Part shown: positions 1 to 50,937 of the stretch, piece after piece
How the letters are laid out: every line of letters begins with the position of its first letter
Numbering within the stretch: position 1 is the first letter of the stretch
From: Neisseria sp.
Lineage (GTDB): Bacteria; Pseudomonadota; Gammaproteobacteria; Burkholderiales; Neisseriaceae
NCBI GenBank assembly: GCA_030538055.1
Contig: JAUNUS010000004.1
Location: forward strand, 25,524 to 89,523
Reading direction: 5' to 3'
DNA: 64,000 bases
Made by a program: the position numbers and the translations under genes
The notes under the pieces: model-generated
The model's input: the letters and a program-made list of their open reading frames with translations, nothing else
Told to the model about the DNA's origin: nothing
The model's database searches: none

Positions 1-2103
1 CTGATCTTTGGTACGGGTTTGGACGCCGGTGACATTGATTTTGTTCCGCGACAACACCTCCGATACGTCGCGCAGCAAACCGTTGCGGTCGTGTGCATAA
101 ATCTCAAGGTCGATCGCAAACACGTTCTGGCTCTGCCCTGCCGACCAAGTCGCCGGCAGGATTTTTTCAGGGTGCTGATTCGCCAAGTGCTCAAACGAAG
201 CACAACCTTGGCGATGAATCGAGATGCCGCGCTCACGCGTGACAAAGCCGATGATCGCGTCCGGCGGTGCGGGTTTGCAGCATTTGGCCAGTACGGTGAG
301 CAGGCCGCTTTCACCGTCAATCAAAATACCGTCGGGGTTATTGGTACCGGCTTTGCTGCTGCGCACGATATCCTCCGCGCTCAAAGCAGCTTTAAGCGGT
401 GCGCTCAATTCGGATAAGACTTTTTCCACCGCATGCGGGGTGATTTCGCCTTGTCCGAGTGCGGCGAAAAAATCTTCGCTTTTATCGAAGTTAAATCGTT
501 CCGCCAGCTTTTGCAGATTCGGCTTGCCGCCGGTTTTGGCAATCGCCTTATCCAACAGATTTTTACCGTTTTCGCGTACCGAATCAATGTTTTGGGCACG
601 GATAAAACTGCGGATTTTGCTGATGGCCTTACTGCTTTTCACCCAGCCTTGATGCAGCCAGTCCGGTGATGGGTTGCCGCTTTTGGCGGCGATGATTTCC
701 ACCCGCTGCCCGCTTTCCAGCGGCGTGGATAAAGGCACGATTTGCCCGTTGACCTTGGCACCTCGGCAGCGATTGCCCAAATCCGAATGCAGCGCGTAAG
801 CAAAATCGATCGGTGTTGCACCATCGGGTAAAGACAACACCCGCCCTTGCGGGGTCAGCACATAAATCGTGTCGTGAAAAAGCTCGGTTTTGAACGCAGC
901 GGCCAAGTTTTCCTTATCGGAAGCCGCCATGTTTTCGCGCCAATCAAGCAATTGGCGCAACCATGCGATTTTTTGTTCGTAAGCACTGTCGGAGTCGCCG
1001 CCTTCTTTGTACCGCCAGTGCGCCGCCACGCCGAATTCGGCAAATTCGTGCATTTCAAAGGTGCGGATTTGCACCTCCACGCCTTTGTTGTTCGGGCCGA
1101 CTACCACCGTGTGTAAGCTGCGGTAATCATTGGATTTAGGGTGCGAAATATAGTCGTCAAACTCGCCTGAAATCGGCTGCCACAAACTGTGCACCACGCC
1201 CAGCGCGGTATAACACTCGGGTACGGTTTCCACCAACACCCGCACCGCCCGAATATCGTACAGCTCGGAAAACGACAAATGCTTGCGCTGCATTTTTTTG
1301 TAAATCGAGTAAATATGCTTCGGCCGCCCTGCGATGTCGCATTTCAGTCCGATTTTTTCCAATTCCGTTTTCAGGCTGCCTGAAAAGTCGGCGATGTAAG
1401 CCAAACGTTCATCGCGCTTTTCGGCTAATGCTTCGGCAATTTCACGATAAGCTTCAGGCTGCTGATAGCGAAAACCCAAATCCTCCAGCTGCCATTTCAA
1501 CTGCCACACCCCCAAACGATTCGCCAACGGGGCAAACACTTCGGTGGTTTCTTTGGCAATCGCCCGTTTAAGCGGACTGTCTGCTACGCGCCCCAAATAC
1601 TGCATGGTGCGGGTACGCATCGCCAGTTTAATCAACACCACGCGAATATCGGACACCATTGCCAGCAACATTTTGCGCATGGTTTCGGCTTGCTGGGCGC
1701 GCTCTTGCGGGTTTTCGGGCGCATTGACAAATTCGGTCAGTTTTTGCACTTGGTCAATGCCTTCGACCAAGCGCACCACACTGATGTCGGCTGCCGCAGT
1801 CAGTTTTTCCCGCCAATCGGGCAAATACGCCGGTAACGATGAGGCCAACACCGCCTGCACCGCTTCAGGCAGCAAATCCATCTGCGCCACCATTTCTGCG
1901 GTGCGCAATAAATGACGTTGTAACGGCTCGCCTGTCGGCGTGGTGGCCGTCGGCGGGATATGATCGCGAAACAACAACGCCACGCACGCAAAAGCCGCCG
2001 CATCGGCTTCAGGCAGGCTGCGATGATAATTTTCCGCCCATTCGGCTGGTGTCTCGTCACTCGTCCAGTCGAATTTTTCGCGCAGCATGGTGTCGGTCAT
2101 CAT
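1..2103 (-). CDS. relA: GTP pyrophosphokinase RelA ((p)ppGpp synthetase I), 3' end cut by window edge
   Basis: Absent from the ORF track because the frame runs off position 1. My minus-strand translation from the ATG at 2103 is open for 701 codons. It shows synthetase motifs (HPKSNDYRSLHTVV, RTFEMHEFAEFGVAAHWRYKEGG), a TGS segment (IYVLTPQGRVLSLPDGATPIDFAYALHSDLGNRCRGAKVNG) and the start of an ACT domain. The N-terminal domain lacks an HD hydrolase motif, which favours RelA over SpoT. Confidence 0.9.
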   Translation of the reverse strand, partial: MMTDTMLREKFDWTSDETPAEWAENYHRSLPEADAAAFACVALLFRDHIPPTATTPTGEPLQRHLLRTAEMVAQMDLLPEAVQAVLASSLPAYLPDWREKLTAAADISVVRLVEGIDQVQKLTEFVNAPENPQERAQQAETMRKMLLAMVSDIRVVLIKLAMRTRTMQYLGRVADSPLKRAIAKETTEVFAPLANRLGVWQLKWQLEDLGFRYQQPEAYREIAEALAEKRDERLAYIADFSGSLKTELEKIGLKCDIAGRPKHIYSIYKKMQRKHLSFSELYDIRAVRVLVETVPECYTALGVVHSLWQPISGEFDDYISHPKSNDYRSLHTVVVGPNNKGVEVQIRTFEMHEFAEFGVAAHWRYKEGGDSDSAYEQKIAWLRQLLDWRENMAASDKENLAAAFKTELFHDTIYVLTPQGRVLSLPDGATPIDFAYALHSDLGNRCRGAKVNGQIVPLSTPLESGQRVEIIAAKSGNPSPDWLHQGWVKSSKAISKIRSFIRAQNIDSVRENGKNLLDKAIAKTGGKPNLQKLAERFNFDKSEDFFAALGQGEITPHAVEKVLSELSAPLKAALSAEDIVRSSKAGTNNPDGILIDGESGLLTVLAKCCKPAPPDAIIGFVTRERGISIHRQGCASFEHLANQHPEKILPATWSAGQSQNVFAIDLEIYAHDRNGLLRDVSEVLSRNKINVTGVQTRTKDQ

Positions 2104-2225: not shown

Positions 2226-2627
2226 TTAAGGCTGATCGCGCGAACCCTTCTCCATACCCGACAACAAAATATTCAGCGCATTGCCTGATAACATCAGCTC
2301 CCGCACCGAAATCAACATGGAAGCCAGCAATAACAACAAACTCAAGGCAAAAGTCCAGACACCTGCCATACGATAACCGCCGAACAAAAGCAAAATGCTG
2401 ACAATACAAACAATCATGCTCAACACGCCGACAATCTGCATATTGCGCGTCATCAGTACGCGACGACGCAAATTATCGATTTGCGCGGCCAACATCGCAT
2501 CCGGGCGTTCCTCATATTCATCGTGCAAATGACGAATCACACTGGATAAACCAAGAAAACGATTGGTATAAGCAAGCAAAATCAAAGAAATAGCAGGAAA
2601 AAGCAAAGCAGGAGTCGTAAAATTCAT
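2226..2627 (-). CDS. DUF2721-like small membrane protein
   Basis: ORF track 2226..2639. The codon at 2639 is GTG, so I chose the ATG at 2627. It has hydrophobic helices flanking a charged loop (IRHLHDEYEERP...DNLRRR), and the N-terminus TPALLFPAISLILLAYTNRF matches my memory of DUF2721. Confidence 0.55.
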   Translation of the reverse strand: MNFTTPALLFPAISLILLAYTNRFLGLSSVIRHLHDEYEERPDAMLAAQIDNLRRRVLMTRNMQIVGVLSMIVCIVSILLLFGGYRMAGVWTFALSLLLLLASMLISVRELMLSGNALNILLSGMEKGSRDQP

Positions 2628-2869
2628 GACGGTAATCACTTAAAAAATCAGGTAATCAATCTCTATCTATTGTAACCATAAGCGACAGATAATGTGAAAT
2701 CGAATTGAGGTGTTTGTGCGATAGCCCACCGGCGGTTAAGCCGGAAAGATTCTGCTGATACGGATTATTTTGCTTGACTCTGTAATTGATGACAGGCTGC
2801 CTGAAACTGATGTCATGACACAATCACGAGCCATCACACCACAACACGCCATGAGCGTGATCCACCGGC

Positions 2870-2901
2870 AAAAAAGCATCGCCATATGACGATGCTTTTT
2901 T
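2870..2901. terminator. bidirectional stem-loop terminator downstream of the GTPase operon
   Basis: AAAAAAGCATCG-ccatatga-CGATGCTTTTTT is a perfect 6-bp GC-containing stem flanked by an A-run and a T-run. It lies 22 nt beyond the stop at 2923. Confidence 0.6.
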
Positions 2902-2922: not shown

Positions 2923-3351
2923 TTATGAGCGTGCGAATTCGTCTACCAGTTCGGTGACCATTTTTTTGATGTGCCACAGTAAGGTGGCAAAATTTTCTTC
3001 ACCATTGGCTGCAACCAGCAATCCCACTTCCTTACCGCCGCTCAAGTACACGATGCGGCTGAACACAAAACCCGCCTCGCATTCGATGTGGGTCGCATCG
3101 GCTTTTTTCAAATTCGACTCTTGCGCCACGGTCGAACTCAAACCGTTTAACGACGCCGTCACCGCCGCCTTACGCATCGCTTCTTGATCATCCATCTCGG
3201 TATAGGCTACCGGAAAACCGTCATCGGTCGCGATCATGGCGTAAACCAAGCTGGTGGCGTTTTTCTTCAAACTGTCGACATGTTTTTTGAACAAATCCGT
3301 GCGCGCTACGATTTCTTCGTGCTTGCGTACGGCTTCATGATTGTCACTCAT
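2923..3351 (-). CDS. Roadblock/LC7 (MglB-like) domain protein
   Basis: 142 aa. The segment SLVYAMIATDDGFPVAYTE...HIECEAGFVFSRIVYLSGGKEVGLLVAANGEENFATLL fits the Roadblock/LC7 pattern. The gene starts 2 nt after the stop of the GTPase gene. Confidence 0.7.
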   Translation of the reverse strand: MSDNHEAVRKHEEIVARTDLFKKHVDSLKKNATSLVYAMIATDDGFPVAYTEMDDQEAMRKAAVTASLNGLSSTVAQESNLKKADATHIECEAGFVFSRIVYLSGGKEVGLLVAANGEENFATLLWHIKKMVTELVDEFARS

Positions 3352-3353
3352 GA

Positions 3354-3902
3354 CTATCCTTTAATTTCTTGATTAATCAGTAATATCTCTAACATCATCA
3401 GCACGTCGGCTTTTTCACGCACATCGACTTCAAAAATCGGCGGGGTCATGCCGCGTTTGGCAAAGTAGTCGGTATATTTGCTCAATGCCATGCCGTTTTT
3501 CGCCGTTTTACCGACGCCGACCACAAATGCCTGTTTTTTGATCAGCTCGTCAAACGCTTCCAGATAGCTGTCCAAATCTTTCATCGGGTTTTCACGGGTT
3601 TCATCCATCAACACAATGCAACCCAACGCACCTTTGGCAAGAATCGGCCACATAAAACTGAAACGCGGCTGTCCGGGAATGCCGTACAGATGCAGCATAT
3701 CCTCACCCAATTCAATCGAACCATAGTCCATTGCCACCGTGGTGGTGGATTTGGTGGATTGCGCTGCATCGGTATTATCCGCCTCGGTCGAGATCGGCGG
3801 AGTATCACTGATGCAAGTGATCGCAGTGGTTTTACCCGCGCCCATCGGCCCGACAAACAGAATCTTGTGTAATACCGTTTTCTTGCTCATAAGGAGGTTC
3901 AA
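3354..3902 (-). CDS. small Ras-superfamily GTPase, MglA/CvnD-like (COG2229-type ATP/GTP-binding protein)
   Basis: 182 aa. It has a P-loop (GPMGAGKTT), a switch-I Thr run (TTTVAMDYG) and a switch-II PGQ (YGIPGQPRF) as in MglA/CvnD. The codon at 3902 is TTG and overlaps the upstream stop (TTGA). An alternative ATG lies at 3890. Confidence 0.75.
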   Translation of the reverse strand: MNLLMSKKTVLHKILFVGPMGAGKTTAITCISDTPPISTEADNTDAAQSTKSTTTVAMDYGSIELGEDMLHLYGIPGQPRFSFMWPILAKGALGCIVLMDETRENPMKDLDSYLEAFDELIKKQAFVVGVGKTAKNGMALSKYTDYFAKRGMTPPIFEVDVREKADVLMMLEILLINQEIKG

Positions 3903-4903
3903 TCTGATAAAAAATCCTGCATATGCAATTTCTTACGCAGGCGGTTAATCCATTTCACGTCTTTTTTGGCCGCAATGTCGGCGGCATGATTACCTGTATC
4001 GCCAAGCTCGTGCTCCAACGGTAGTTGTGCCATGCTTGCCGCTGCCAAAAAGTGCAGTACCTGTTCGGTATCCAAGCCCGATTTGGCAACAGCCTCACTG
4101 ACCGAAGTTGACTTTTGCGTGAATAAGGTGGTCAACAACAACAGTTTGGCGTTGGTTTCCCACTGCCCGAAAAGCGGCCATTTTTTCAGGCGAAACAAGC
4201 TGCCTGCGTCACCAAAACGAGTCAATGCTTCTTCGCTCAACGGCGCATGCAGACCGTAACTCCATACCAAGGCATCGTAAGTAAATACTACAGCTTCCGG
4301 CGGCGGCTCATGGTAAGCAGCAATCTGCGGCACCGCAGTATCGGTCAGCAACGCCACCAAGCCCGCCATATCTTGACAACTGGTATGAACTTTGCCAAGC
4401 GTACGGCTAATCCACGCCATGTCTTGCGGCCATGTCAACACATGCTCCTGTTGCACGGCAAAATCCTGCAAATAGCGTGTAAAAAACGGCACTGCTGCCG
4501 GAGTCTGTAACGCCGGTGTTTCCAGTTCTGCCGCGACTGGCGGGACGGTTTTCGGTATGGTTTGGGTCGTGGATTTAGGGGCGGTTTGCAGCAGCTGTTC
4601 TGCGGTTTGCAAAGCATGCAGAAAAGCCATGGCCGTCAAAGGATACGCTACCATGACCACCTGAGCGTTCAGGCCGGTCATATTGGTGATCACCGGACGT
4701 GCCAGCAGCTCCACCTCTCCACACGTATGCGCCTCGCCCAAACAAAAAGCATCGGCCTCATCACGGGATACGCCGACCTGCCACGTGCAGGTCAGCTTAC
4801 CGGAGTGAGTGCCGATGCGATTAACGGTGTCCAACAACCGAGGCAGTGTTTGGACAAAATCATCAGGCATTCCGTCTACAAACAAAAAAGCGGATTGATT
4901 CAC
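3899..4903 (-). CDS. hypothetical 334-aa protein, no family recognised (two domains joined by a Pro/Thr-rich linker)
   Basis: Long ORF in operon context with a GTG start at 4903 (next ATG at 4870). The linker is TAPKSTTQTIPKTVPPVAAELETPALQTPAAVP. The stop overlaps the GTPase start. Confidence 0.6.
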   Translation of the reverse strand: MNQSAFLFVDGMPDDFVQTLPRLLDTVNRIGTHSGKLTCTWQVGVSRDEADAFCLGEAHTCGEVELLARPVITNMTGLNAQVVMVAYPLTAMAFLHALQTAEQLLQTAPKSTTQTIPKTVPPVAAELETPALQTPAAVPFFTRYLQDFAVQQEHVLTWPQDMAWISRTLGKVHTSCQDMAGLVALLTDTAVPQIAAYHEPPPEAVVFTYDALVWSYGLHAPLSEEALTRFGDAGSLFRLKKWPLFGQWETNAKLLLLTTLFTQKSTSVSEAVAKSGLDTEQVLHFLAAASMAQLPLEHELGDTGNHAADIAAKKDVKWINRLRKKLHMQDFLSD

Positions 4904-4935
4904 GAATTGCCCTGTCCGTCAAAATTAAATATCAA

Positions 4936-5292
4936 TTACAAACCGTGCTCGGCATCAACCAATGCGCGGCGAGCCAAAGCAAGGTTGGATTTGCTTTTAT
5001 CCAGTACGAAATACAGGAACAAACCATCATGTTTGGTCAAGGGGCGCATCAGGTGGTACTGTGAACCGAGCGTGATCAAAATATCATCAATGTTGTCTTT
5101 TAAACCCAACATTTCCATGGTTTTCATTTTGGCACGCATCACTTCGGTGTTACCGGCAGCGGCAATTTCCAAATCCAAAGTCGAGATACCCTCACCTGCC
5201 AACAACATGCCGCTGGAGTAGTCTACAACCGCAGCCGACAATGCACCGTCTACCGAGAGTAATTGTTTGATGGTGGTTTCAAAGTTTTTCAT
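4936..5292 (-). CDS. Roadblock/LC7-like protein (first gene of operon)
   Basis: 118 aa. The ATG is preceded by AAGGAA. The pattern VDGALSAAVVDYSSGMLLAGEG...DDILITLGSQYHLMRPL...LFLYFVLDKSKSNLALARRAL fits the Roadblock fold. It is a paralog of 33387..33752. Confidence 0.6.
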   Translation of the reverse strand: MKNFETTIKQLLSVDGALSAAVVDYSSGMLLAGEGISTLDLEIAAAGNTEVMRAKMKTMEMLGLKDNIDDILITLGSQYHLMRPLTKHDGLFLYFVLDKSKSNLALARRALVDAEHGL

Positions 5293-5833
5293 GAGTCATT
5301 CCTTGTTTGATGTATTTAAGTCGGGTACAAAATTCAGGTTTACAGCGACCTGCCGCGCTCGTCACCAAACGCCTTCCGGCATGATGACAAATTTATTCAG
5401 CCGCTCTACAACATAAATCTTACGCCGAACATCAGCATAAAACGAGTGGGAAAAAATCGATTAAATTTTAACACCATGAGTCTCTAACTGTCTAGTTTAA
5501 ACCACAGAAAAAGCGCTGACGACACAGAAAAAATCATTGATAAAGTCAACTCAAAACAGAAAGTCAAAAAATAAAAACTATAATTTGCCGTGTAAAAGAA
5601 CAACAATTACAACCATCAGCATGACTTTTTTTAAATTGCCAAATGTCAATATCTATGGCTTCCGCTTAGCCCTCCAATCAAGCTTCTGTGTAAAATAACA
5701 ACAATGGCAATCAAAAATCCGTCCATCTTTATCAACAAAGTGATGTTATGGCCAACACAATCAATTGACAATGATGGCATGTTGAATATTTTGATTATTG
5801 TATACCTAAACGTCCATCGCGCTGAATCATCCT

Positions 5834-6609: not shown

Positions 6610-6685
6610 TCCTCCCACCCAGCTGCTGCACAAGACTTCAGGCTGCCTGAAACAGCAGTCGTCACACTGATCATGCAAAATTTTA

Positions 6686-33386: not shown

Positions 33387-33752
33387 ATGTCCAATTTCGC
33401 CTTATCAGAACTTGCCAAATTAGACGGCTTTATCGCCGTTACCCTAGTCGACACCGAAGTCGGCATGAGCATGGCATCCGAAGGCTCAACCGCAACCGAC
33501 CCCGAGATGAACGCCGTTGCCGCAACCGAAGTTTATCGCTCAATGACTAAAGCCATTGATCTGTTGCAGTTGAACGATAAAATCGAAGACACTTTGGTCT
33601 CCTTAGGCGACACCTACCAGCTGATTCGCCCCTTGCATGCCAATCCCAAACTCGTGATTCATCTGGCCATGCGCCGTGCCCAGTCCAACTTGGCATTGGC
33701 TCGTCGCGCTTTGTCCGACTTTGAAAGCAGCCACGATTTTTCCGTGCTGTAA
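33387..33752 (+). CDS. Roadblock/LC7-like protein, orphan paralog of 4936..5292
   Basis: 121 aa. It aligns by eye along its whole length with the 118-aa protein (LDGFIAVTLVD / VDGALSAAVVD; LIRPL / LMRPL; identical SNLALARRAL). It is flanked by an AT-rich upstream region and its own terminator. Confidence 0.6.
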   Translation: MSNFALSELAKLDGFIAVTLVDTEVGMSMASEGSTATDPEMNAVAATEVYRSMTKAIDLLQLNDKIEDTLVSLGDTYQLIRPLHANPKLVIHLAMRRAQSNLALARRALSDFESSHDFSVL

Positions 33753-44705: not shown

Positions 44706-45743
44706 ATGCAAATTACCGACTTACTGGCTTTTTCCGTACAGAATAAAGCCTCCGACTTGCACATCAGTACCGGCTTGCCGCCGATGATCCGCGTTCACGG
44801 CGACATTCGCCGCATCAATTTACCCGACACCACCACGGAAGACGTGTTCAACATGATTTCCGACATCATGAACGACAACCAGCGCAAAATCTACCAGCAA
44901 AATCTGGAAACCGACTTTTCGTTTGAGTTGCCGAACGTGGCGCGTTTTCGTGTCAATGCCTTCAATACCAATCGCGGCCCGGCAGCGGTGTTCCGGACGA
45001 TTCCGAGCGAAGTTTTGACCTTGGAGCAGCTGGATTCGCCCAAAGTGTTCAAAGATATTTGCGACACCCCGCGCGGTTTGGTGCTGGTGACGGGCCCCAC
45101 CGGTTCGGGTAAATCCACCACGCTGGCGGCGATGATCGACTACATCAACGAAAACCAGCCGATGCACATTCTGACGGTGGAAGACCCGATCGAGTTTGTG
45201 CACAAAAGCAAAAAAGCCTTGATCAACCAGCGCGAACTGCACGAACACACCCATAGCTTTGAAAATGCTTTGCGTTCGGCCTTGCGTGAAGACCCGGACG
45301 TGATTCTGGTCGGCGAGATGCGTGACGTCGAAACCATTCGCTTGGCTTTGACCGCAGCCGAAACCGGTCACTTGGTGTTCGGCACCTTGCACACCACGGG
45401 CGCGGCCAAAACCATTGACCGGATCGTGGACGTGTTCCCCGGCGGCGAAAAAGACATGATCCGCACCATGCTTTCCGAAAGTTTGCGCTCGGTGATTTCG
45501 CAAACCCTGCTGAAGAAAAAAGACGGCAAAGGTCGTTGCGCCGCTTATGAAATCCTGATCAGTACACCGGCGATTCGTAACCTGATTCGTGAAAACAAAG
45601 TCGCCCAAATGGGTTCGATGATCCAGACCGGTCAGCAGTACGGTATGCAGACTTTGGATCAGGCCTTAAGCGCACTGGTTAAACGCGGTTTAATCAGCCT
45701 CGAAGCGGCACGCGCCAAAGCGCAAAGCCCGCAAAACATATAA
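44706..45743 (+). CDS. pilT: type IV pilus retraction ATPase PilT
   Basis: Walker A GPTGSGKST, GHLVFGTLHT His box, and the PilT signature AIRNLIRENKVAQM. Confidence 0.95.
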   Translation: MQITDLLAFSVQNKASDLHISTGLPPMIRVHGDIRRINLPDTTTEDVFNMISDIMNDNQRKIYQQNLETDFSFELPNVARFRVNAFNTNRGPAAVFRTIPSEVLTLEQLDSPKVFKDICDTPRGLVLVTGPTGSGKSTTLAAMIDYINENQPMHILTVEDPIEFVHKSKKALINQRELHEHTHSFENALRSALREDPDVILVGEMRDVETIRLALTAAETGHLVFGTLHTTGAAKTIDRIVDVFPGGEKDMIRTMLSESLRSVISQTLLKKKDGKGRCAAYEILISTPAIRNLIRENKVAQMGSMIQTGQQYGMQTLDQALSALVKRGLISLEAARAKAQSPQNI

Positions 45744-45758
45744 TTCGGAGACTTGCTC

Positions 45759-46997
45759 ATGAACGAACCTCAAATCACCGACTATGCGGAAGTCAGCGGC
45801 GCGTCCGCTCAAGCACCGCATTTGCGTTATTTGCGTGCCGATGCCGCCGCGCTGAAAATCCCGCGCTTGGGCAAAGCTTATGAAACCATGTTCAAGCTGA
45901 TGGAATATGCTGCCGAACATAACGCCTCCGATATTTTTATCGCGCCCGATTTTCCGCCTGCGGTCAAAATCAACGGCAAAATCACCCCTTTGTCCGACAA
46001 GCCTTATGCGCCCGCCACCACGCGCGACTTGGTGTACTCCACCATGAACGAAAAGCAAATCCGCGAATTTGAAAGCGAGTGGGAGCTGAACTACGCGCAC
46101 CGTGCCACCGACGAGGTGCGTTTCCGTGTCAATGCTTACCACGAGCAAGGACGCGTCGGCATGGTGATGCGGAAAATCAACACCGAAATCGCCACCTTGG
46201 ACGATCTCAAGCTGCCTGAAGTCTTGAAAAGACTGGCGATGGCGCATCGCGGCTTGATTATTGTGGTGGGCGCGACCGGTTCGGGTAAATCGACATCGCT
46301 GGCGGCGATGGTCGATTACCGCAACAAACGCGCCGCCGGACATATTGTCACGATTGAAGACCCGATCGAGTTTGTGCACCGCCACCACAAAAGCATCATT
46401 ACCCAACGCGAAATCGGCATCGACACCGAAAGCTGGCACGTCGCCCTGAAAAGTGCGATGCGGCAAGCGCCGGACGTGGTGATCGTGGGCGAAGTGCGCG
46501 ACGAGGACAGCATGAGCCATGCTTTGCAATTGTCGCAGACCGGTCACTTGTGTATGTGTACCTTGCACGCGACCAACGCCAACCAAGCGATCGAGCGCGT
46601 GATCAACTTCTACAACGAAGACCGTCACCCGCAAATCTTTATGGACTTGGCGATGAACTTGGTCGCGATCGTGTCGCAACGCTTGGTGGTCAAAGCCGAC
46701 GGCAGCGGCCGTACCGTGGCGATGGACATCATGCTCAACACCCCTGCGGTGCAGGATTTGATTTTCAAAGGCGACATCGACGGCATCAAGGAAATCATGA
46801 CCCGCTCCGAAGATGACGGCATGCAAACCTTTGACCAGCACTTATTCGAGTTGTACAAAGAAGGCGTCATCGACTTTGACGAAGCGATGCGTAACGCCGA
46901 CTCCGCCAACAACCTGCGCTTGGCGATTAAATTGTACGAAGAAGGCTTATCGCCGGACGAGCGCAATAAACGCGTGCAGCATTTGGATTTGATGTAA
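45759..46997 (+). CDS. pilU: PilT-family ATPase PilU
   Basis: GATGSGKST and GHLCMCTLHATNA. It lies immediately downstream of pilT. ATG at 45759 (track start 45753 is TTG). Confidence 0.9.
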   Translation: MNEPQITDYAEVSGASAQAPHLRYLRADAAALKIPRLGKAYETMFKLMEYAAEHNASDIFIAPDFPPAVKINGKITPLSDKPYAPATTRDLVYSTMNEKQIREFESEWELNYAHRATDEVRFRVNAYHEQGRVGMVMRKINTEIATLDDLKLPEVLKRLAMAHRGLIIVVGATGSGKSTSLAAMVDYRNKRAAGHIVTIEDPIEFVHRHHKSIITQREIGIDTESWHVALKSAMRQAPDVVIVGEVRDEDSMSHALQLSQTGHLCMCTLHATNANQAIERVINFYNEDRHPQIFMDLAMNLVAIVSQRLVVKADGSGRTVAMDIMLNTPAVQDLIFKGDIDGIKEIMTRSEDDGMQTFDQHLFELYKEGVIDFDEAMRNADSANNLRLAIKLYEEGLSPDERNKRVQHLDLM

Positions 46998-47073: not shown

Positions 47074-48462
47074 TCACCGCCGTGCCAATGCCGCACCTTG
47101 TTTGAAATACGCATGGATACCGTTGGCAATCGCTTGCGCCGCTTTGACGCGAAAAGAGGTCGAGGCGAGCAGTTTTTCTTCTTGCGGATTCGACAGAAAA
47201 GCCGTCTCGACCAAAATCGACGGCACGTCCGGCGCTTTGAGCACGGCAAAGGCTGCCTGATCGACATGACCTTTATGCAGCTTATTGATTTTCCCCAGCT
47301 GTGCGAGGACGAGTTTGCCCAGTTTCAGGCTGTCGTTGATGGTGGCGGTTTGGGTGAGGTCAAACAATGTATTGTCGATCATCGGGTCGCCTACGCTGCG
47401 CACGCCGCCGATGGCATCGGCTTCGTTCTGGGTTTTTGCCAGATAGCGGGCGGCGGTGCTGGTCGCGCCTTTGCGGCTTAACGCATACACGCCCGTACCG
47501 CGTGCCGCCGGACTGGTGAAGGCATCGGCGTGAATCGAAACAAAAACGTCCGCCTTGAGTGCGCGCGCTTTGGCCACCCGTACGCGCAAGGGAATAAACA
47601 CGTCTTCGTTGCGCGTCATGTAAACCTTATAACCTAAACGTTCCAACTGCTTTTTGCACTCACGCCCGATCGCCAATACCACGTTTTTTTCATACAATCC
47701 CGACGGGCCGACCGCACCGGGGTCTTCACCGCCATGCCCCGGATCCAGCACCACAATGATCTGGCGTTTGCCTGCCGGTTTTACAGACGGCGGCGGGGTG
47801 ACGGGTTTGCCGGGCGGCTGCGTTGGGGGTGTCGGGTCTTTTTTCTGCGCGGCGAGAATACTGTCGATTTTCTGCCCGAGAATGTCCTCTTCCTCCGCAG
47901 ACGGCGTGACGCTGACGCGATTGTCCGGAATGGTGGTGCGCGCCACCACCGTGGTTGAACCGTCACTGCGGATTTCGCCACGGCTGTAGTCTTGCAGCAA
48001 CGCCATTAAAGGGTCTTGTTCGGTACCGGTGACAGCAGGATAAAGGTCAATCACCAGTCGGTTTTTGAAATCCGCCACCGGACTTAAAGTGAACACCTGC
48101 GGATCAATCAAGGCTTTGAGGTCAAACACCACGCGAATCACATTGGCACTGTGTTGTGCCACGCGCACACGGGCGATGTAAGGGTCGCGTTCCAGAATTT
48201 TGGAGGATAAGGTCTGCAAAACGCCGTTTAATTCCGCACCGCTGATGTCCACCACCAAGCGGTCGGTGTTTTGCAAAGTGAAATGGGTGTATTGCAGCGG
48301 CAGGGTAGATTCCAGCGTGACGCGGGTATAGGCGGCGGCCGGCCACACCCGTACCGCGACGAATTGCGACAAAGCTTGCGCGGCGCGCATGGCGGGTGAC
48401 ACCGCCAGCAACAAAGTGCCGCCTGCCGCATTCAGAATTTGTCGTCTGGTGAATTTTGCCAT
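47074..48462 (-). CDS. amiC: N-acetylmuramoyl-L-alanine amidase with Tat signal and AMIN domain
   Basis: Tat motif TRRQILNAAGG...AMRAAQA, an AMIN-like N-domain, a Pro-rich linker and a catalytic domain (LDPGHGGEDPGAVG, SIHADA). I placed the start at MAKFTRRQ (48462). Confidence 0.9.
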   Translation of the reverse strand: MAKFTRRQILNAAGGTLLLAVSPAMRAAQALSQFVAVRVWPAAAYTRVTLESTLPLQYTHFTLQNTDRLVVDISGAELNGVLQTLSSKILERDPYIARVRVAQHSANVIRVVFDLKALIDPQVFTLSPVADFKNRLVIDLYPAVTGTEQDPLMALLQDYSRGEIRSDGSTTVVARTTIPDNRVSVTPSAEEEDILGQKIDSILAAQKKDPTPPTQPPGKPVTPPPSVKPAGKRQIIVVLDPGHGGEDPGAVGPSGLYEKNVVLAIGRECKKQLERLGYKVYMTRNEDVFIPLRVRVAKARALKADVFVSIHADAFTSPAARGTGVYALSRKGATSTAARYLAKTQNEADAIGGVRSVGDPMIDNTLFDLTQTATINDSLKLGKLVLAQLGKINKLHKGHVDQAAFAVLKAPDVPSILVETAFLSNPQEEKLLASTSFRVKAAQAIANGIHAYFKQGAALARR

Positions 48463-48938
48463 GCTGTGAACATTTCCTGACCTGTCGCCGTATGGGGCGT
48501 TATTGTACACATTCTGCCTTCGTTCTGCACCGCAAAGGCAAAGCTGATATCGGCAGGCGGCACAAAGCCTTCCGCACATTGCGCCCACTCGATCAACGCC
48601 AAAACCGGCGCGTGCATTTCATCGTCAAAACCGGCCTCTTCCCATTCCTGCGGCTCATGAAAACGGTACAGATCAAAGTGCAACACGCGCGCTGCCGGTA
48701 AATGATAAGTCTCCAAGAGATTATAGGTCGGGCTTTTGACATTGCCCGTAAAACCCATCGCCCGTAAAAAGCCGCGCACAAACGTGGTTTTGCCGCTGCC
48801 CAAATCACCATGCAGATACACCGTCACCGCTTGCGTAGCGTGCGCCGCAGCAGCGTACAGGCTGCCTGAACAACGCGTCGCCAAAGCCGCCGTGGCGGTT
48901 TCATCGGGTAAAAATACAGTCATGGTTTCAGGCAGCAT
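48432..48938 (-). CDS. tsaE: tRNA t6A biosynthesis ATPase TsaE
   Basis: GDLGSGKTTFVRG P-loop and HFDLYR. The ATG at 48938 abuts the rsmD stop. The 3' end overlaps the amiC start by 31 nt. Confidence 0.9.
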   Translation of the reverse strand: MLPETMTVFLPDETATAALATRCSGSLYAAAAHATQAVTVYLHGDLGSGKTTFVRGFLRAMGFTGNVKSPTYNLLETYHLPAARVLHFDLYRFHEPQEWEEAGFDDEMHAPVLALIEWAQCAEGFVPPADISFAFAVQNEGRMCTITPHTATGQEMFTAWQNSPDDKF

Positions 48939-49516
48939 CAATCTTTCCGTTCGCTTTCATCAGCGGCGGCATAACGCGCCAACACAAAATAGCTCATGCC
49001 GCTGCGGCCGCGTTTGCGCTCCTGCAAAGCCGCAGGCAGGACAACTTCGGCGGCGGCTTCGGCGTACACTTCCGCGTGCGGATTCAGGCGCGGCAGCAGT
49101 GCCGTCCATAACGCCTCCCAATCCTGCCACGCATACGGCGGATCCAGCAGCACCACATCAAACATTTCCTGCGTCTGTTTCAAATACTGCAGCGCATCAC
49201 CGCGATGAAGAGTAATTTCAGGCAGCCTTAACAGCTCGAGATTCGCCGCAATTTCGGCACAAGTGCGCGGATTAGCCTCCACCAACACCGTGCGCGCCGC
49301 GCCGCGTGACGCCGCCTCGCAACCCAACACCGCACTGCCGGCAAACAGATCCAGCACGCTTTTGCCGTGCAAGGTTTGCCCGAGCCAGTTGAAAAGTTTT
49401 TCGCGCACCGCGTCCGCGCTTGGGCGCAGACCGTCGGCATCGCGAAAACGCAATAAACGCGAACGGTGCGTGCCGCCGATGATGCGGACTTGATTTTTAT
49501 GTTTAGCGTGACGCAT
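48938..49516 (-). CDS. rsmD: 16S rRNA (guanine966-N2)-methyltransferase
   Basis: VRIIGGTHRSRLL, RPSADAVREKLFNWL, DLFAGSAVLG and LDPPY. Confidence 0.9.
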   Translation of the reverse strand: MRHAKHKNQVRIIGGTHRSRLLRFRDADGLRPSADAVREKLFNWLGQTLHGKSVLDLFAGSAVLGCEAASRGAARTVLVEANPRTCAEIAANLELLRLPEITLHRGDALQYLKQTQEMFDVVLLDPPYAWQDWEALWTALLPRLNPHAEVYAEAAAEVVLPAALQERKRGRSGMSYFVLARYAAADESERKD

Positions 49517-49536
49517 GGTTTAAATAAAGGATAATT

Positions 49537-50937
49537 TTAACGCAACAATACTTTCATCATCAGTTGGAACAGCTTGCCGTAAGGCGGCGCGAGCAAGCCC
49601 GTGCCGTTGAGTTTCGACTGGATAAACACGCTCTTATAATGGGTGAAGGTGTCAAAACCCGCCTTGCCGTGGTACGCGCCCATGCCTGATGCGCCGATGC
49701 CGCCGAACGGTAAATTTTCCTGCGCCACATGGTAGATGGTTTCGTTCAGTGACGCGCCGCCGCTGACGGTGTTGTGCAGCAAATCGTCCAGTCGCTTGGC
49801 ATCGCTGCTGAAACCGTACAACGCCAACGGACGTTCGCGCTCACGGATAAAGGCCAGTGCTTCCGCCTCGTCGCGATACGTCACCACGGGCAAAATCGGC
49901 CCGAAAATCTCTTCATTGAGTAACTTCGCCTGTGCAGGCAGCCCGGTGACCAGAGTCGGCGGTAAAAAACGGCCGGCCGCGTCGGCAACGTCGTCGCCTA
50001 AGGAAATAATGCTTGCGCCCAGCTCTGCCGCCTCATCCAGCCATGCACGCAAGCGTGCATATTGGCGTTCGTTGATGATGCGGGTGAAGTCCGCCCCGCT
50101 GCGCAATTGCGGATAATGCTTTTGCACCCATGCGCGTGCGTGCTCGATAAATTCAGGCAAATGCGCTTGCGGCAATAAAGCATAATCAGGCGCAATGCAG
50201 GTTTGGCCAGCATTGAGCAATTTGCCTGCCATAATGCGTGCGGCGGTTTGTGCCAAATCGGCATCGTCCAACACCACGCACGGCGATTTGCCGCCCAATT
50301 CCAAAGTCACAGGGGTCAGGTTCGCAGCAGCCGCCTGCATCACTTTGCGCCCGACCGCAGTCGATCCCGTGAACAGCAAATGGTCAAACGGCAAAGCGGC
50401 AAACGCCTCCGCCACTTCACGCTCGCCGCACACCACCGCCACTTCGTCGGCGGCAAAATAATCCGGCACGGTTTGTTGCAACCACGCGGCAAACGCAGGG
50501 GCGAATTCCGACATTTTGATCAAAGCACGATTGCCCGCGACCAAGGCCGCCAGCAACGGTCCCACAGTTAGGTACAAAGGATAATTCCACGGCGCAATAA
50601 TCCCGACCACGCCTTTGGCCTGCGGCACGATGCGGCTTTGCGCGGGGAAAAACCACAAGCCGCTGGGTACGCGACGCGGCTTCATCCACGACTCACCGTG
50701 ACGTAAAGCATGGCGCACGCCTTCCAGCGTCGGAAACACTTCCAGCAGCAAAGTCTCCGCGACGGCACGCTGCCCGAAATCCCGGCTGATGGTCTCGGCA
50801 ATCGTCCGACTGTGGGTTTTCACCATGTCCAGCAGGCGTTGCAAGCGGTCGCGCCGCACCGACCACGGCACATGCACTTCGTTGCGCGATGCGGCGTATT
50901 GCGCGTCAAATAACGCTTGTAATGATCTTTGATCCAT
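49537..50937 (-). CDS. aldehyde dehydrogenase (coniferyl-aldehyde dehydrogenase-like, ALDH3-type)
   Basis: ELGGKSP, catalytic Cys context GQTCIAPDY, and EEIFGPILPV. I placed the start at MDQRSLQ (50937). Confidence 0.85.
   Translation of the reverse strand: MDQRSLQALFDAQYAASRNEVHVPWSVRRDRLQRLLDMVKTHSRTIAETISRDFGQRAVAETLLLEVFPTLEGVRHALRHGESWMKPRRVPSGLWFFPAQSRIVPQAKGVVGIIAPWNYPLYLTVGPLLAALVAGNRALIKMSEFAPAFAAWLQQTVPDYFAADEVAVVCGEREVAEAFAALPFDHLLFTGSTAVGRKVMQAAAANLTPVTLELGGKSPCVVLDDADLAQTAARIMAGKLLNAGQTCIAPDYALLPQAHLPEFIEHARAWVQKHYPQLRSGADFTRIINERQYARLRAWLDEAAELGASIISLGDDVADAAGRFLPPTLVTGLPAQAKLLNEEIFGPILPVVTYRDEAEALAFIRERERPLALYGFSSDAKRLDDLLHNTVSGGASLNETIYHVAQENLPFGGIGASGMGAYHGKAGFDTFTHYKSVFIQSKLNGTGLLAPPYGKLFQLMMKVLLR

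Follow-up and report, generated by a model that had tools for sequence, protein, structure and literature searches.

The described systems closest to the locus considered here are the Group 3 MglA systems, catalogued in 2015 in beta- and gamma-Proteobacteria including Neisseria (Wuichet and Sogaard-Andersen, PMC4316618). [quoted passage not shown] Many beta- and gamma-Proteobacteria have such systems, among them Neisseria, Stenotrophomonas, Xanthomonas-group bacteria, Acinetobacter, Pseudomonas and methanotrophs, and ten years after the cataloguing the sole phenotype reported, an effect on host-colonisation fitness together with a change in soft agar, comes from a bee-gut member of the Neisseriaceae. 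The mglA of that bacterium, Snodgrassella, has been assigned to Group 3 and the genes named a 'group 3 mgl operon' (Meng et al. 2024, PMC11112851). There Tn-seq found mglB-1, mglB-2 and mglB-3 to benefit colonisation, and a G78R mutation in the orphan mglB altered the flares formed in soft agar, which its authors read as type IV pilus (T4P) motility; an unlinked third mglB is also present in most Group 3 genomes, Snodgrassella included (PMC11112851). In the literature searched, no functional study of a Group 3 system other than that of Snodgrassella was found, and the sole experimental hint for the class is one pointing to surface behaviour and host colonisation.

What, then, is the set of four genes in a 64,000-nucleotide stretch of Neisseria DNA, the whole of which is termed 'the window' below? 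It belongs to that known, poorly understood, signalling module as a new and divergent member, and is not a new type of system. More fully, and with considerable confidence, it is read as a small-GTPase switch module of the Group 3 MglA type, belonging to the subtype in which two MglB homologues are coupled, and in a rare gene order. An earlier note, made from the sequence of the window, had treated the architecture as new, a view that has to be given up as it had already been described, large unknown protein included, as Group 3 (PMC4316618). That note also reckoned that prior characterisation in a related organism would undo its case; such characterisation exists in part, in the form of the 2015 catalogue (PMC4316618) and of the Snodgrassella experiments (PMC11112851).

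The operon and its boundaries

Four co-oriented and closely spaced genes, A to D, occupy the minus strand from 2923 to 5292 (Table 1).

Table 1. Features of the locus, with positions numbered from the first letter of the window
Feature	Position	Strand	Description
Gene A	4936-5292	-	118 aa, divergent Roadblock/LC7 protein (MglB-like), 'Ra' type
Gene B	3899-4903	-	334 aa, GTG start, Group 3 'conserved unknown'
Gene C	3354-3890	-	178 aa from ATG 3890, small GTPase of the MglA family (Group 3)
Gene D	2923-3351	-	142 aa, Roadblock/LC7 protein (MglB/CvnB/MfpD-like), 'Rd' type
Intrinsic terminator	~2870-2901	-	13-bp stem and U-run, closes the operon
Intergenic region	5293-5833		541 bp, AT-rich, separates the operon from a divergent rRNA-methylase-like gene
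Orphan third Roadblock gene	33387-33752	+	121 aa, paralogue of A, downstream of pnp

Coordinates are as the earlier note gave them, and so are the gaps, 32 nt from A to B and 2 nt from C to D. A Shine-Dalgarno sequence, AAGGA, lies 8 nt 5' of gene A. The spacing suggests that the four genes form one transcription unit, and the reality of the operon is well beyond chance since the four are kept as a set in other genomes. The start of gene C is another matter. Its reading frame is open from TTG 3902 (3354-3902, 182 aa), and the TTGA overlap with B at 3899-3902 had been taken as the start, which is probably wrong because the N-termini of homologues and the public gene call (on an identical contig, 178 aa) favour ATG 3890. 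That start leaves an 8-nt gap after the stop codon of B, and B-to-C translational coupling is plausible with either. The stem-loop terminator that had been proposed is real: its hairpin has an MFE of -24.7 kcal/mol (z = -3.7) and none of 200 shuffles folded equally well.

The 5' leader, and one promoter or more, presumably lie within the intergenic region. This region has a GC content of 34-39%, compared with 53% for the whole window, and sigma-70-like sites are found on its minus strand, e.g., at 5494-5465 with 10 of 12 matches and an extended TG; counts of promoter-like and terminator-like sites within it equal those expected from shuffles. A riboswitch or other RNA element was considered for this long leader and set aside, Rfam giving nothing at E<=1. 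Nor is leader length conserved, the equivalent spacer in Vitreoscilla being ~286 bp. The operon had been said to lie behind a long AT-rich leader and to look accessory. That it is accessory is reasonable, since the genomic context varies and one copy is plasmid-borne, while the leader does not serve as a basis for saying so. The Neisseriaceae origin that had been proposed for the DNA is borne out by identical proteins carrying Neisseria sp. MAG names and by 55 copies of a DUS-like 12-mer in the window.

The GTPase

The Group 3 assignment is based on motifs, on the taxonomy of the host, on gene neighbourhood and on homology to the Snodgrassella, Neisseria and Stenotrophomonas loci. That C is a P-loop GTPase, as the earlier note had it, is upheld by Pfam search (PF03029, 44.5 bits; Roc, 26.9 bits), its profile matches Rab, Sec4 and MglA structures, and the PGQ switch II is present. 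C has 72% identity to its Vitreoscilla counterpart. Identity to the GTPases of Neisseria mucosa, N. sicca and Snodgrassella is 47-48%, the value for the last, which is the one that Meng et al. placed in Group 3, being 47%. G1 is GPMGAGKT. In the G2 region, K-S-T-T-T-V, T50 and T51 are invariant and Arg is absent. In G3, Y-G-I-P-G-Q, G70, P72, G73 and Q74 are invariant, with position 71 variable (I/T/A/V/M). The G4 region, VVGVGKTA (family consensus VVGxGxx), is degenerate and departs from [NT]KxD, while D156 and R158 of the G5 D-V-R (D[VA]R in the family) are invariant in 20 of 20 sequences. Since the GKTA of G4 is without the guanine-specifying Asp, the GTP specificity of C is itself presumptive.

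The Roadblock proteins

The Roadblock identity proposed for the products of both outer genes was correct, by different routes. D scores 27.3 bits for Robl_LC7, above the cut-off of 23, and the profile of its family matches 7f8m (2e-22), 9jue (3e-20), CvnB5 (3leq, 3.6e-13) and Rv3364c/MfpD (6.7e-10). A, at 16.7 bits, falls under that cut-off, and is nevertheless a Roadblock protein because its family profile matches solved Roadblock structures (7f8m, E 3.6e-6; 7yh1, E 8.5e-5) and because hhalign pairs the A and D families with 91% probability (E 9e-7). The two types differ at an adjacent Asp-Gly pair that is invariant in the 26 sequences of D type (26/26) and in place of which A has VDxxSGM (D-x3-G).

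A third Roadblock gene, overlooked in the first reading, lies elsewhere in the window (Table 1). Its product has 41% identity to A (E 2e-29) and scores 158 bits on the A-type HMM. This orphan is probably, in functional terms, part of the system that the operon encodes.

The third protein, B

Protein B has no match in Pfam, NCBIfam or PADLOC, and its family profile matched nothing among PDB sequences. Relatives are scarce: there were two word-indexed matches, exhaustive HMMER searching gave 45, and at E<=1e-10 there are 16 representatives among 1.84 billion; the nearest has 44% identity. The AlphaFold2 model has a pLDDT of 88 overall and of 90 for the C-terminal half, and predicts that residues 1-107 form a receiver-like N-domain, ~108-139 a disordered linker rich in Pro, 140-245 an alpha/beta domain and 252-300 a winged helix, after which comes a basic C-terminal helix. 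The linker varies in length from 0 to 259 residues in the family. Foldseek matches are to receiver domains (probability 0.87-0.97, E 0.05-0.2) and to the winged helix 2yu3 (probability 0.99, E 0.06); they are weak, none having E < 0.04 with either the whole model or its C-terminal half, and it is the recurrence of receiver and winged-helix matches that speaks for these folds. Conserved positions within residues 1-107 are G11, Q23, W41, A50, P88, L94, L98 and E102, and no Asp there is conserved at >=60%. Because the fold is receiver-like and the phospho-acceptor Asp is not conserved, the N-domain is taken to be a pseudo-receiver.

Could B be a DNA-binding regulator, with receiver-like input and winged-helix output, that is gated by the GTPase and the Roadblock proteins? 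The winged helix is confidently predicted, some members of the B family have weak IclR, ArsR, HTH_20 or TrmB matches, and a transcriptional role has been suggested for Group 3 by Wuichet and Sogaard-Andersen (PMC4316618). However, no significant match to a DNA-binding family was found, the receiver-like domain is without a conserved phospho-acceptor Asp and has no cognate kinase nearby, and the putative recognition helix, with the conserved V..F[LI].AC...GL, is hydrophobic; its median content across 45 members is one Lys/Arg, and its net charge is -1. Since that helix is hydrophobic with few Lys/Arg, the winged helix looks more like those engaged in protein-protein contacts than like those that bind DNA, and the regulator reading is considered unlikely.

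The earlier note also placed B in the position that DUF742 has in a conservon. A relationship between B and DUF742 is not detectable. PF05331 (DUF742) matches neither B nor any of its 45 relatives, and when the DUF742 proteins of eight genuine Streptomyces and Embleya plasmid conservons were aligned and compared with the B family by hhalign, part of the helix-turn-helix only was paired (E 0.18, probability 0.3%). Proteins that combine DUF4388/PATAN with a winged helix, and which adjoin related GTPases in actinobacterial MAGs, were likewise rejected as relatives, the winged helix alone being aligned (hhalign E 0.24). The C-terminal half of B gives recurring weak Foldseek matches to Nprl2/3 of GATOR1/SEAC, with TM < 0.3 and E > 0.1, which are at most a lead.

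The DUF742 result bears on whether the operon is a reduced actinobacterial-type conservon, CvnB-CvnC-CvnD without CvnA, that was acquired horizontally. C does match PF03029 as CvnD does and has 33-37% identity to the GTPases of Streptomyces plasmid conservons, and the D-type profile matches CvnB5 and MfpD. But there is no kinase, B is not DUF742, the B-type cassette is both widespread in and specific to beta- and gamma-Proteobacteria, and Group 2 and Group 3 are separate in the literature. These membership tests effectively refute derivation from a conservon, which is extremely improbable.

Gene order and mobility

With the B-family HMM, a GTPase-adjacent gene is found in 52 of 88 sources (87 loci and the window). 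The E-values include 1e-12 for Neisseria mucosa, 4e-13 for Snodgrassella, 4e-13 for Acinetobacter and 1e-5 for Stenotrophomonas, and Pseudomonas is also represented; almost all loci with a B-type protein are from beta- and gamma-Proteobacteria. Apart from this locus, the order A-B-GTPase-D was encountered solely in Vitreoscilla and in a single metagenomic contig. Among other relatives the orders, with G for the GTPase, are B-G-Rd-Ra, Rd-Ra-B-G, G-Rd-B-Ra and B-G-[213 aa]-Rd. The genomic context of the cassette is different in every relative, and one complete cassette, with IS elements on either side, is carried by a conjugative plasmid of Acinetobacter. The evidence is that the four components constitute a permutable and mobile cassette. 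A functional tie to the neighbouring relA/spoT or DUF2721 genes was also entertained, and dropped as that neighbourhood is kept in no relative.

Mobility of this sort, with its change of position among relatives and carriage on a conjugative plasmid, and the location of the operon within a 3.8-kb stretch devoid of the DUS-like repeat, would suit anti-phage defence or some other mobile accessory function apart from signalling. Yet PADLOC gave nothing but a trivial P-loop match, there is no nuclease, protease or other effector-like domain, and the parts are classic GTPase-regulator components; such a function is scarcely credible.

Cellular role

Does the module control T4P assembly, twitching or competence, as Group 1 does in Myxococcus, Thermus and Bdellovibrio? 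The pilus link was suggested by pilT and a pilU-like gene in the window. The density of the DUS-like repeat implies T4P-dependent competence and, in Snodgrassella, the mglB genes matter for colonisation and the orphan-mglB mutation changes flares. Against this, pilT/pilU are ~40 kb away, the context of the cassette differs in every relative, C is without the intrinsic Arg finger and TVPGQ of Group 1, and the T4P link in Snodgrassella was deduced from colony morphology only. Further, all-versus-all clustering of neighbours at the 52 loci yielded no recurrent pil gene; what recurs is only the ~213-aa protein, which belongs to the other Group 3 subtype, and neighbours limited to particular lineages. 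The pilus link, as proposed from the window, accordingly has no genomic support, what indirect support there is coming from Snodgrassella, and control of T4P functions is judged a doubtful role for this Group 3 module.

A possible mechanism

A to D would be transcribed together from the AT-rich upstream region, with transcription ending at the hairpin at 2870-2901. By analogy with the systems described, C would cycle between nucleotide-bound states. D is probably its GTPase-activating protein (GAP), acting on its own as a homodimer or paired in a heterodimer with A, the divergent Roadblock. It has the invariant Asp-Gly pair that MglBs typically carry when coupled to Group 2-5 MglAs, and it resembles CvnB and MfpD. 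A and the orphan paralogue are without that pair and are more likely to be adaptor or modulator subunits, as MglC is for MglB in Myxococcus. [quoted passage not shown]

A bolder proposal can be made, though it is a distinctly unlikely one. It is that B represents a proteobacterial class of GTPase regulator homologous to neither DUF742 nor RomX, and that B and an A:D heterodimer form a Ragulator/GATOR-like platform controlling both nucleotide exchange and hydrolysis by a Group 3 MglA. The output would be through protein-protein contacts, e.g., in the positioning of a surface machine, rather than through transcription, and the cassette, a 'G-protein switch' complete in itself and moved by horizontal transfer, could be put to use for varied cellular targets.

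What the locus adds leaves the Group 3 classification unchanged, and sharpens questions testable in a cultivable relative. It provides a confident structural model of B, in which a predicted pseudo-receiver is joined by an alpha/beta domain and by a winged helix that looks unlike a DNA-binding one, and the negative finding that B is no relative of DUF742. It allows a DG-bearing Roadblock, the likely GAP, to be told apart from a DG-less one that has an orphan paralogue, and it gives evidence of a permutable, mobile, four-part cassette, one copy of which is carried by a conjugative plasmid.

Comparison with known systems

The analogy to MglA/MglB and to the conservons drawn in the earlier note holds, as does its point about the kinase, none being encoded within +/-10 kb of the operon. 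There is a likeness with the eukaryotic Rag-Ragulator-GATOR1, where a small GTPase is also under the control of Roadblock heterodimers and of proteins with alpha/beta and winged-helix domains. The profiles of A and D match LAMTOR2 weakly; the Nprl2/3 matches of B are not significant, and this is analogy only. With the Group 1 MglA-MglB of Myxococcus and Thermus there is in common a Ras-like GTPase with a Roadblock GAP, a paralogous second Roadblock (MglC, paralleled by A), and, in RomR, a broad layout of receiver, Pro-rich linker and C-terminal domain like that of B. However, C has neither of the Group 1 hallmarks, an intrinsic Arg finger and TVPGQ (its G2 is TTT, not RT, and its G3 GIPGQ), and the Group 1 partners MglC, RomR/RomX and RomY are dispersed whereas here the partners are operon-encoded.

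Conservons (CvnA-D; MfpB-E), which as Group 2 are kept separate from Group 3 in the MglA classification (PMC4316618), share a PF03029-type GTPase with GxPGQ, a CvnB/MfpD-like Roadblock protein and, directly upstream of the GTPase, a co-evolving, non-enzymatic winged-helix third protein. In the mycobacterial system MfpD is the GAP and MfpC the GEF (PMC11343762). In contrast, all genuine conservons compared have the CvnA/MfpE histidine kinase that is missing from the window operon, where the third protein is not DUF742, is three times larger and has a pseudo-receiver, there are two Roadblock genes, and the host is proteobacterial.

It is with Group 3 that the correspondence is closest. The window locus departs from it in its rare gene order, its very divergent B and the Ile for Thr in G3. 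C nonetheless shares the G2 Thr-Thr without Arg, the GxPGQ of G3, a G4 that is not [NT]KxD and the D[AV]R of G5; B is the adjacent Pfam-less protein with, as modelled, the published receiver-linker-winged-helix architecture; there are two coupled Roadblocks and an unlinked third, with the DG pair in D matching the MglBs of Group 2-5 MglAs; and the host clade, the beta- and gamma-Proteobacteria, is the same.

Operon layout and signals

The four minus-strand ORFs (genes A to D, for a Roadblock protein, a protein lacking Pfam matches, a small GTPase and a further Roadblock protein) lie where an earlier note, made from the sequence only, had placed them, as the ORF positions confirm. On inspection, the Shine-Dalgarno sequence AAGGA is 8 nt upstream of A, 32 nt separate A from B, and C is followed after 2 nt by D, which has AAAGGA upstream. 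Do B and C overlap? The TTGA overlap proposed for them needs C to start at the TTG at 3902, and is probably wrong: the N-termini of homologues, together with a public 178-aa gene call on the identical contig, favour the ATG at 3890, 8 nt past the stop codon of B. The stem-loop previously noted behind D is a strong intrinsic terminator, judged by its stem, its U-run and its folding (MFE -24.7 kcal/mol, z = -3.7, with 0 shuffles folding equally well). The intergenic region upstream of A is common to the operon and a divergently transcribed rRNA-methylase-like gene; within it no Rfam family was found, and its promoter-like sites do not outnumber those of shuffled sequences. The genes that come next downstream, also on the strand of the operon, encode a DUF2721 membrane protein and a (p)ppGpp enzyme of the RelA/SpoT family (1-2103 and 2226-2639, minus strand), an adjacency kept in none of the relatives examined.

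Features of the window, of the model of protein B and of related loci (L numbers are labels of homologous genome loci)
Feature	Position	Strand	Description
Gene A	4936-5292	-	ORF, 118 aa
Gene B	3899-4903	-	ORF, 334 aa, GTG start
Gene C	3354-3902	-	ORF, 182 aa counted from TTG
Gene D	2923-3351	-	ORF, 142 aa
Intrinsic terminator hairpin	2870-2901		Downstream of D; 13-bp stem and U-run
Intergenic region upstream of A	5293-5833		541 bp; 34-39% GC vs 53% in window
Orphan Roadblock gene	33387-33752	+	121 aa; 41% identical to A, E 2e-29
pilT	44706-45743		
pilU-like gene	45753-46997		
B, alpha/beta N-domain	residues 1-107		AlphaFold2 model
B, Pro-rich linker	between N-domain and second alpha/beta domain		Disordered; AlphaFold2 model
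B, second alpha/beta domain	residues 140-245		AlphaFold2 model
B, winged helix	residues 252-300		AlphaFold2 model
B, basic C-terminal helices			AlphaFold2 model
~213-aa protein	L008 5534-6175; L014 5540-6199; L020 5532-6170; 23 other loci		
Acinetobacter wuhouensis cassette	NZ_CP033119.1 (L100/L101), record 48258-50181 and 1-492		Flanks: IS1595, IS5 and IS3 transposases

The GTPase and its Roadblock partners

C scores 44.5 bits against PF03029 (ATP_bind_1, the family including CvnD) and 26.9 bits against Roc, and a profile of 20 homologues matches the structures of Rab, Sec4 and MglA. In the alignment its G1 motif is GPMGAGKT, G2 is TTT without arginine, G3 is YGIPGQ, G4 is degenerate (VVGVGKTA) and G5 is an invariant D-V-R. 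More than 700 relatives are found at E<=1e-3, in a first identity band of 65-88% (uncultured Neisseriaceae and Vitreoscilla) and a second of about 50% (Pseudomonas, Derxia, methanotrophs and others). The G4 of C, at 3480-3500, reads GKTA and so is without the guanine-specifying Asp; the closest relative has GKTD, and GRxx, GHxx or T[KR]xD occur in others. Within this GTPase family, specificity for the nucleotide may vary.

D is above the Pfam Roadblock threshold (27.3 bits, cut-off 23), and the D-type profile matches solved Roadblock structures (7f8m, 2e-22; 9jue, 3e-20), Streptomyces CvnB5 (3.6e-13) and M. tuberculosis Rv3364c/MfpD (6.7e-10). A is a Roadblock protein despite its sub-threshold Pfam score of 16.7 bits: the profile of its family matches 7f8m (3.6e-6) and 7yh1 (8.5e-5), and in profile-profile comparison the A and D families align over 109 columns (91% probability, E 9e-7). 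An Asp-Gly pair is invariant in D-type proteins (26/26), in place of which A-type proteins have V-D-x-x-S-G-M at the same diagnostic site. The domain-level interpretation of the earlier note, Roadblock, GTPase, Roadblock, is correct by Pfam and profiles. The window has a third Roadblock gene, an orphan paralogue of A immediately downstream of pnp, whose product has no Pfam match at E<=0.1.

Protein B

What is B? It has no match in Pfam, NCBIfam or PADLOC, and a word-indexed search of 5.8 billion proteins returned only B itself (Neisseria sp. MAG) and a single relative at 44% identity. Exhaustive HMMER against 1.84 billion representatives gave 45 relatives, 16 of them at E<=1e-10, with the similarity mainly in the C-terminal half. 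On the alignment of these relatives the AlphaFold2 model is confident (mean pLDDT 88), as is the C-terminal half modelled alone (pLDDT 90, pTM 0.84). Foldseek of the model against the PDB gave no strong match, the best E-values being 0.04-0.06. Receiver domains (FrzS, AdeR, HP1043, PA1611REC) recur for the N-domain with probability up to 0.97, and the C-terminal half matches the winged helix 2yu3 (probability 0.99) and, weakly, MarR-type regulators. Because the conserved columns of the alignment hold no Asp in the receiver-like domain, the N-domain is a pseudo-receiver at most. In the winged helix, helix three is hydrophobic and follows a conserved V..F[LI].AC...GL pattern; its median count of basic residues is one and its net charge -1, from which contact with protein rather than DNA is inferred. 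Residues W214, P243, W248 and F285 form a conserved surface of B, and its C-terminal helix carries RLRxxL.

The C-terminal half (3899-4516) also repeatedly retrieves Nprl2/Nprl3-type GATOR1/SEAC chains (8adl_S, 9o5a_H, 9h4q_T, 7t3a_B). These matches, over 167-193 columns with TM < 0.3 and RMSD 11-15 A, are not significant and are noted for the Rag/GATOR-like analogy that they may hint at.

A divergent member of a described class

Wuichet and Sogaard-Andersen (Genome Biol Evol 2015; PMC4316618) split the prokaryotic MglA homologues into five groups. For Groups 2-5, and Groups 2 and 3 specifically, they list TT in G2, no Arg finger, GTPGQ, a deviant G4, DAR as G5 and, for the coupled MglB, a DG pair. 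The Group 3 unknown protein was described as having conserved, Pfam-less N- and C-terminal regions, predicted by Phyre2 to be receiver-like and winged-helix-like, with a variable linker between (PMC4316618). C and D fit the published motif description. In the same family, Neisseriaceae, the Snodgrassella mgl operon was classed as Group 3 by Meng et al. (Microbiome 2024; PMC11112851), with two coupled mglB and an orphan third about 1 Mb distant, a pattern of unlinked orphans in Group 3 genomes that the third Roadblock gene of the window mirrors. The operon is not of a new kind; it is a divergent member of a described class, the Group 3 MglA systems that have two coupled MglBs.

The survey covered 80 fetched genome loci plus public contexts, annotated with HMMs built from our alignments. 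The B-family HMM matches the GTPase-adjacent gene in 52 of 88 sources (87 loci and the window), with E-values of 1e-12 in Neisseria mucosa, 4e-13 in both Snodgrassella and Acinetobacter, 6.5e-22 in Methylobacter, 4e-77 in Pseudomonas and 1e-5 in Stenotrophomonas. With Ra and Rd for A- and D-type Roadblock and G for GTPase, the order is Ra-B-G-Rd in the window, one metagenomic contig and Vitreoscilla; B-G-Rd-Ra in Pseudomonas, Comamonadaceae and Lysobacteraceae; Rd-Ra-B-G in Stenotrophomonas and Pseudoxanthomonas; and G-Rd-B-Ra in Acinetobacter. The upstream A gene is absent in some close relatives. A second subtype, B-G-[~213 aa]-Rd, occurs in Neisseria mucosa, N. sicca, Snodgrassella, Stenoxybacter, methanotrophs and Thiotrichales; its ~213-aa protein, between the GTPase and a 120-aa Roadblock protein, is conserved and Pfam-less, and its C-terminal half bears a weak resemblance to Roadblock (hhalign E 3.4e-4, prob 38%).

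Accessory status and mobility

Each genome examined has different flanking genes, and on a conjugative plasmid of Acinetobacter wuhouensis (50 kb) a complete G-Rd-B-Ra cassette has IS elements on either side. Related GTPases are also carried by Ralstonia megaplasmids. GC3 of the operon is slightly low (0.56-0.61 vs a typical 0.63-0.70). The 12-mer AGGCTGCCTGAA, a DNA-uptake-sequence (DUS)-like repeat that corresponds to the Eikenella-type DUS dialect, has 55 copies in the 64 kb against 0.01 expected (e.g., 2794-2805 and 6640-6651), on average one per 1.2 kb. Between 2806 and 6639, the 3.8 kb with operon and leader, there are none, and this is the second-largest gap of the window. Variable position, low GC3 and the repeat-free stretch together support an operon that is accessory and horizontally mobile. 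The earlier note had also called it accessory, and that part stands; its appeal to a long AT-rich leader does not, the length not being conserved.

Is pilus control the output?

The Snodgrassella work offers the one piece of support, an indirect one: G78R in the orphan mglB gave a colonisation advantage and changed soft-agar colony edges, and in Tn-seq in the bee gut all three mglB were beneficial (PMC11112851). However, pilT and the pilU-like gene, on whose presence in the window a pilus link had been proposed, are about 40 kb away from the operon, and neighbour clustering over 52 related loci shows no recurrent pil gene. Pilus control is a possible, unproven output, and we consider it rather unlikely. 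Our literature search found no functional work on Group 3 besides that on Snodgrassella, and the window instance, being from an uncultured MAG, does not by itself give easier access to the question of Group 3 function.

Comparison with conservons, MglA/MglB and Mfp

With both the conservon and the MglA/MglB module the locus shares a small GTPase paired with Roadblock regulators and with a third protein that co-evolves. Plasmid conservons of Streptomyces and Embleya have the order kinase, Roadblock, DUF742 (108-127 aa), GTPase. Genuine conservons have the kinase, whereas, as had been remarked, the operon has none, at least within +/-10 kb. The Group 1 MglA of Myxococcus has an arginine finger and TVPGQ, both of which C lacks. 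B has no detectable relation to DUF742 (hhalign E 0.18; no Pfam match in any of its 45 relatives), nor to the DUF4388/PATAN and winged-helix proteins encoded beside related GTPases in actinobacterial MAGs. The locus would therefore work like a conservon or MglA/MglB module, yet it belongs to neither family.

In those MAGs (L062, L065, L066, L070, L074, L087) a Roadblock gene and one for a 330-440-aa DUF4388/PATAN-winged-helix protein precede the GTPase. The winged helix is weakly related to DUF742 (hhalign E 1e-3), and these proteins end in a conserved ...LRLIAGVRGL tail, which the basic C-terminus of B (RLRKKL) superficially resembles.

In Mycobacterium, GAP activity is reported for the Roadblock protein MfpD and GEF activity for MfpC, which is the DUF742 protein (PMC11343762). 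By analogy, which motivates but does not prove the assignments, D would be the GAP for C, and B, in the slot of MfpC, might be an exchange factor, scaffold or effector.
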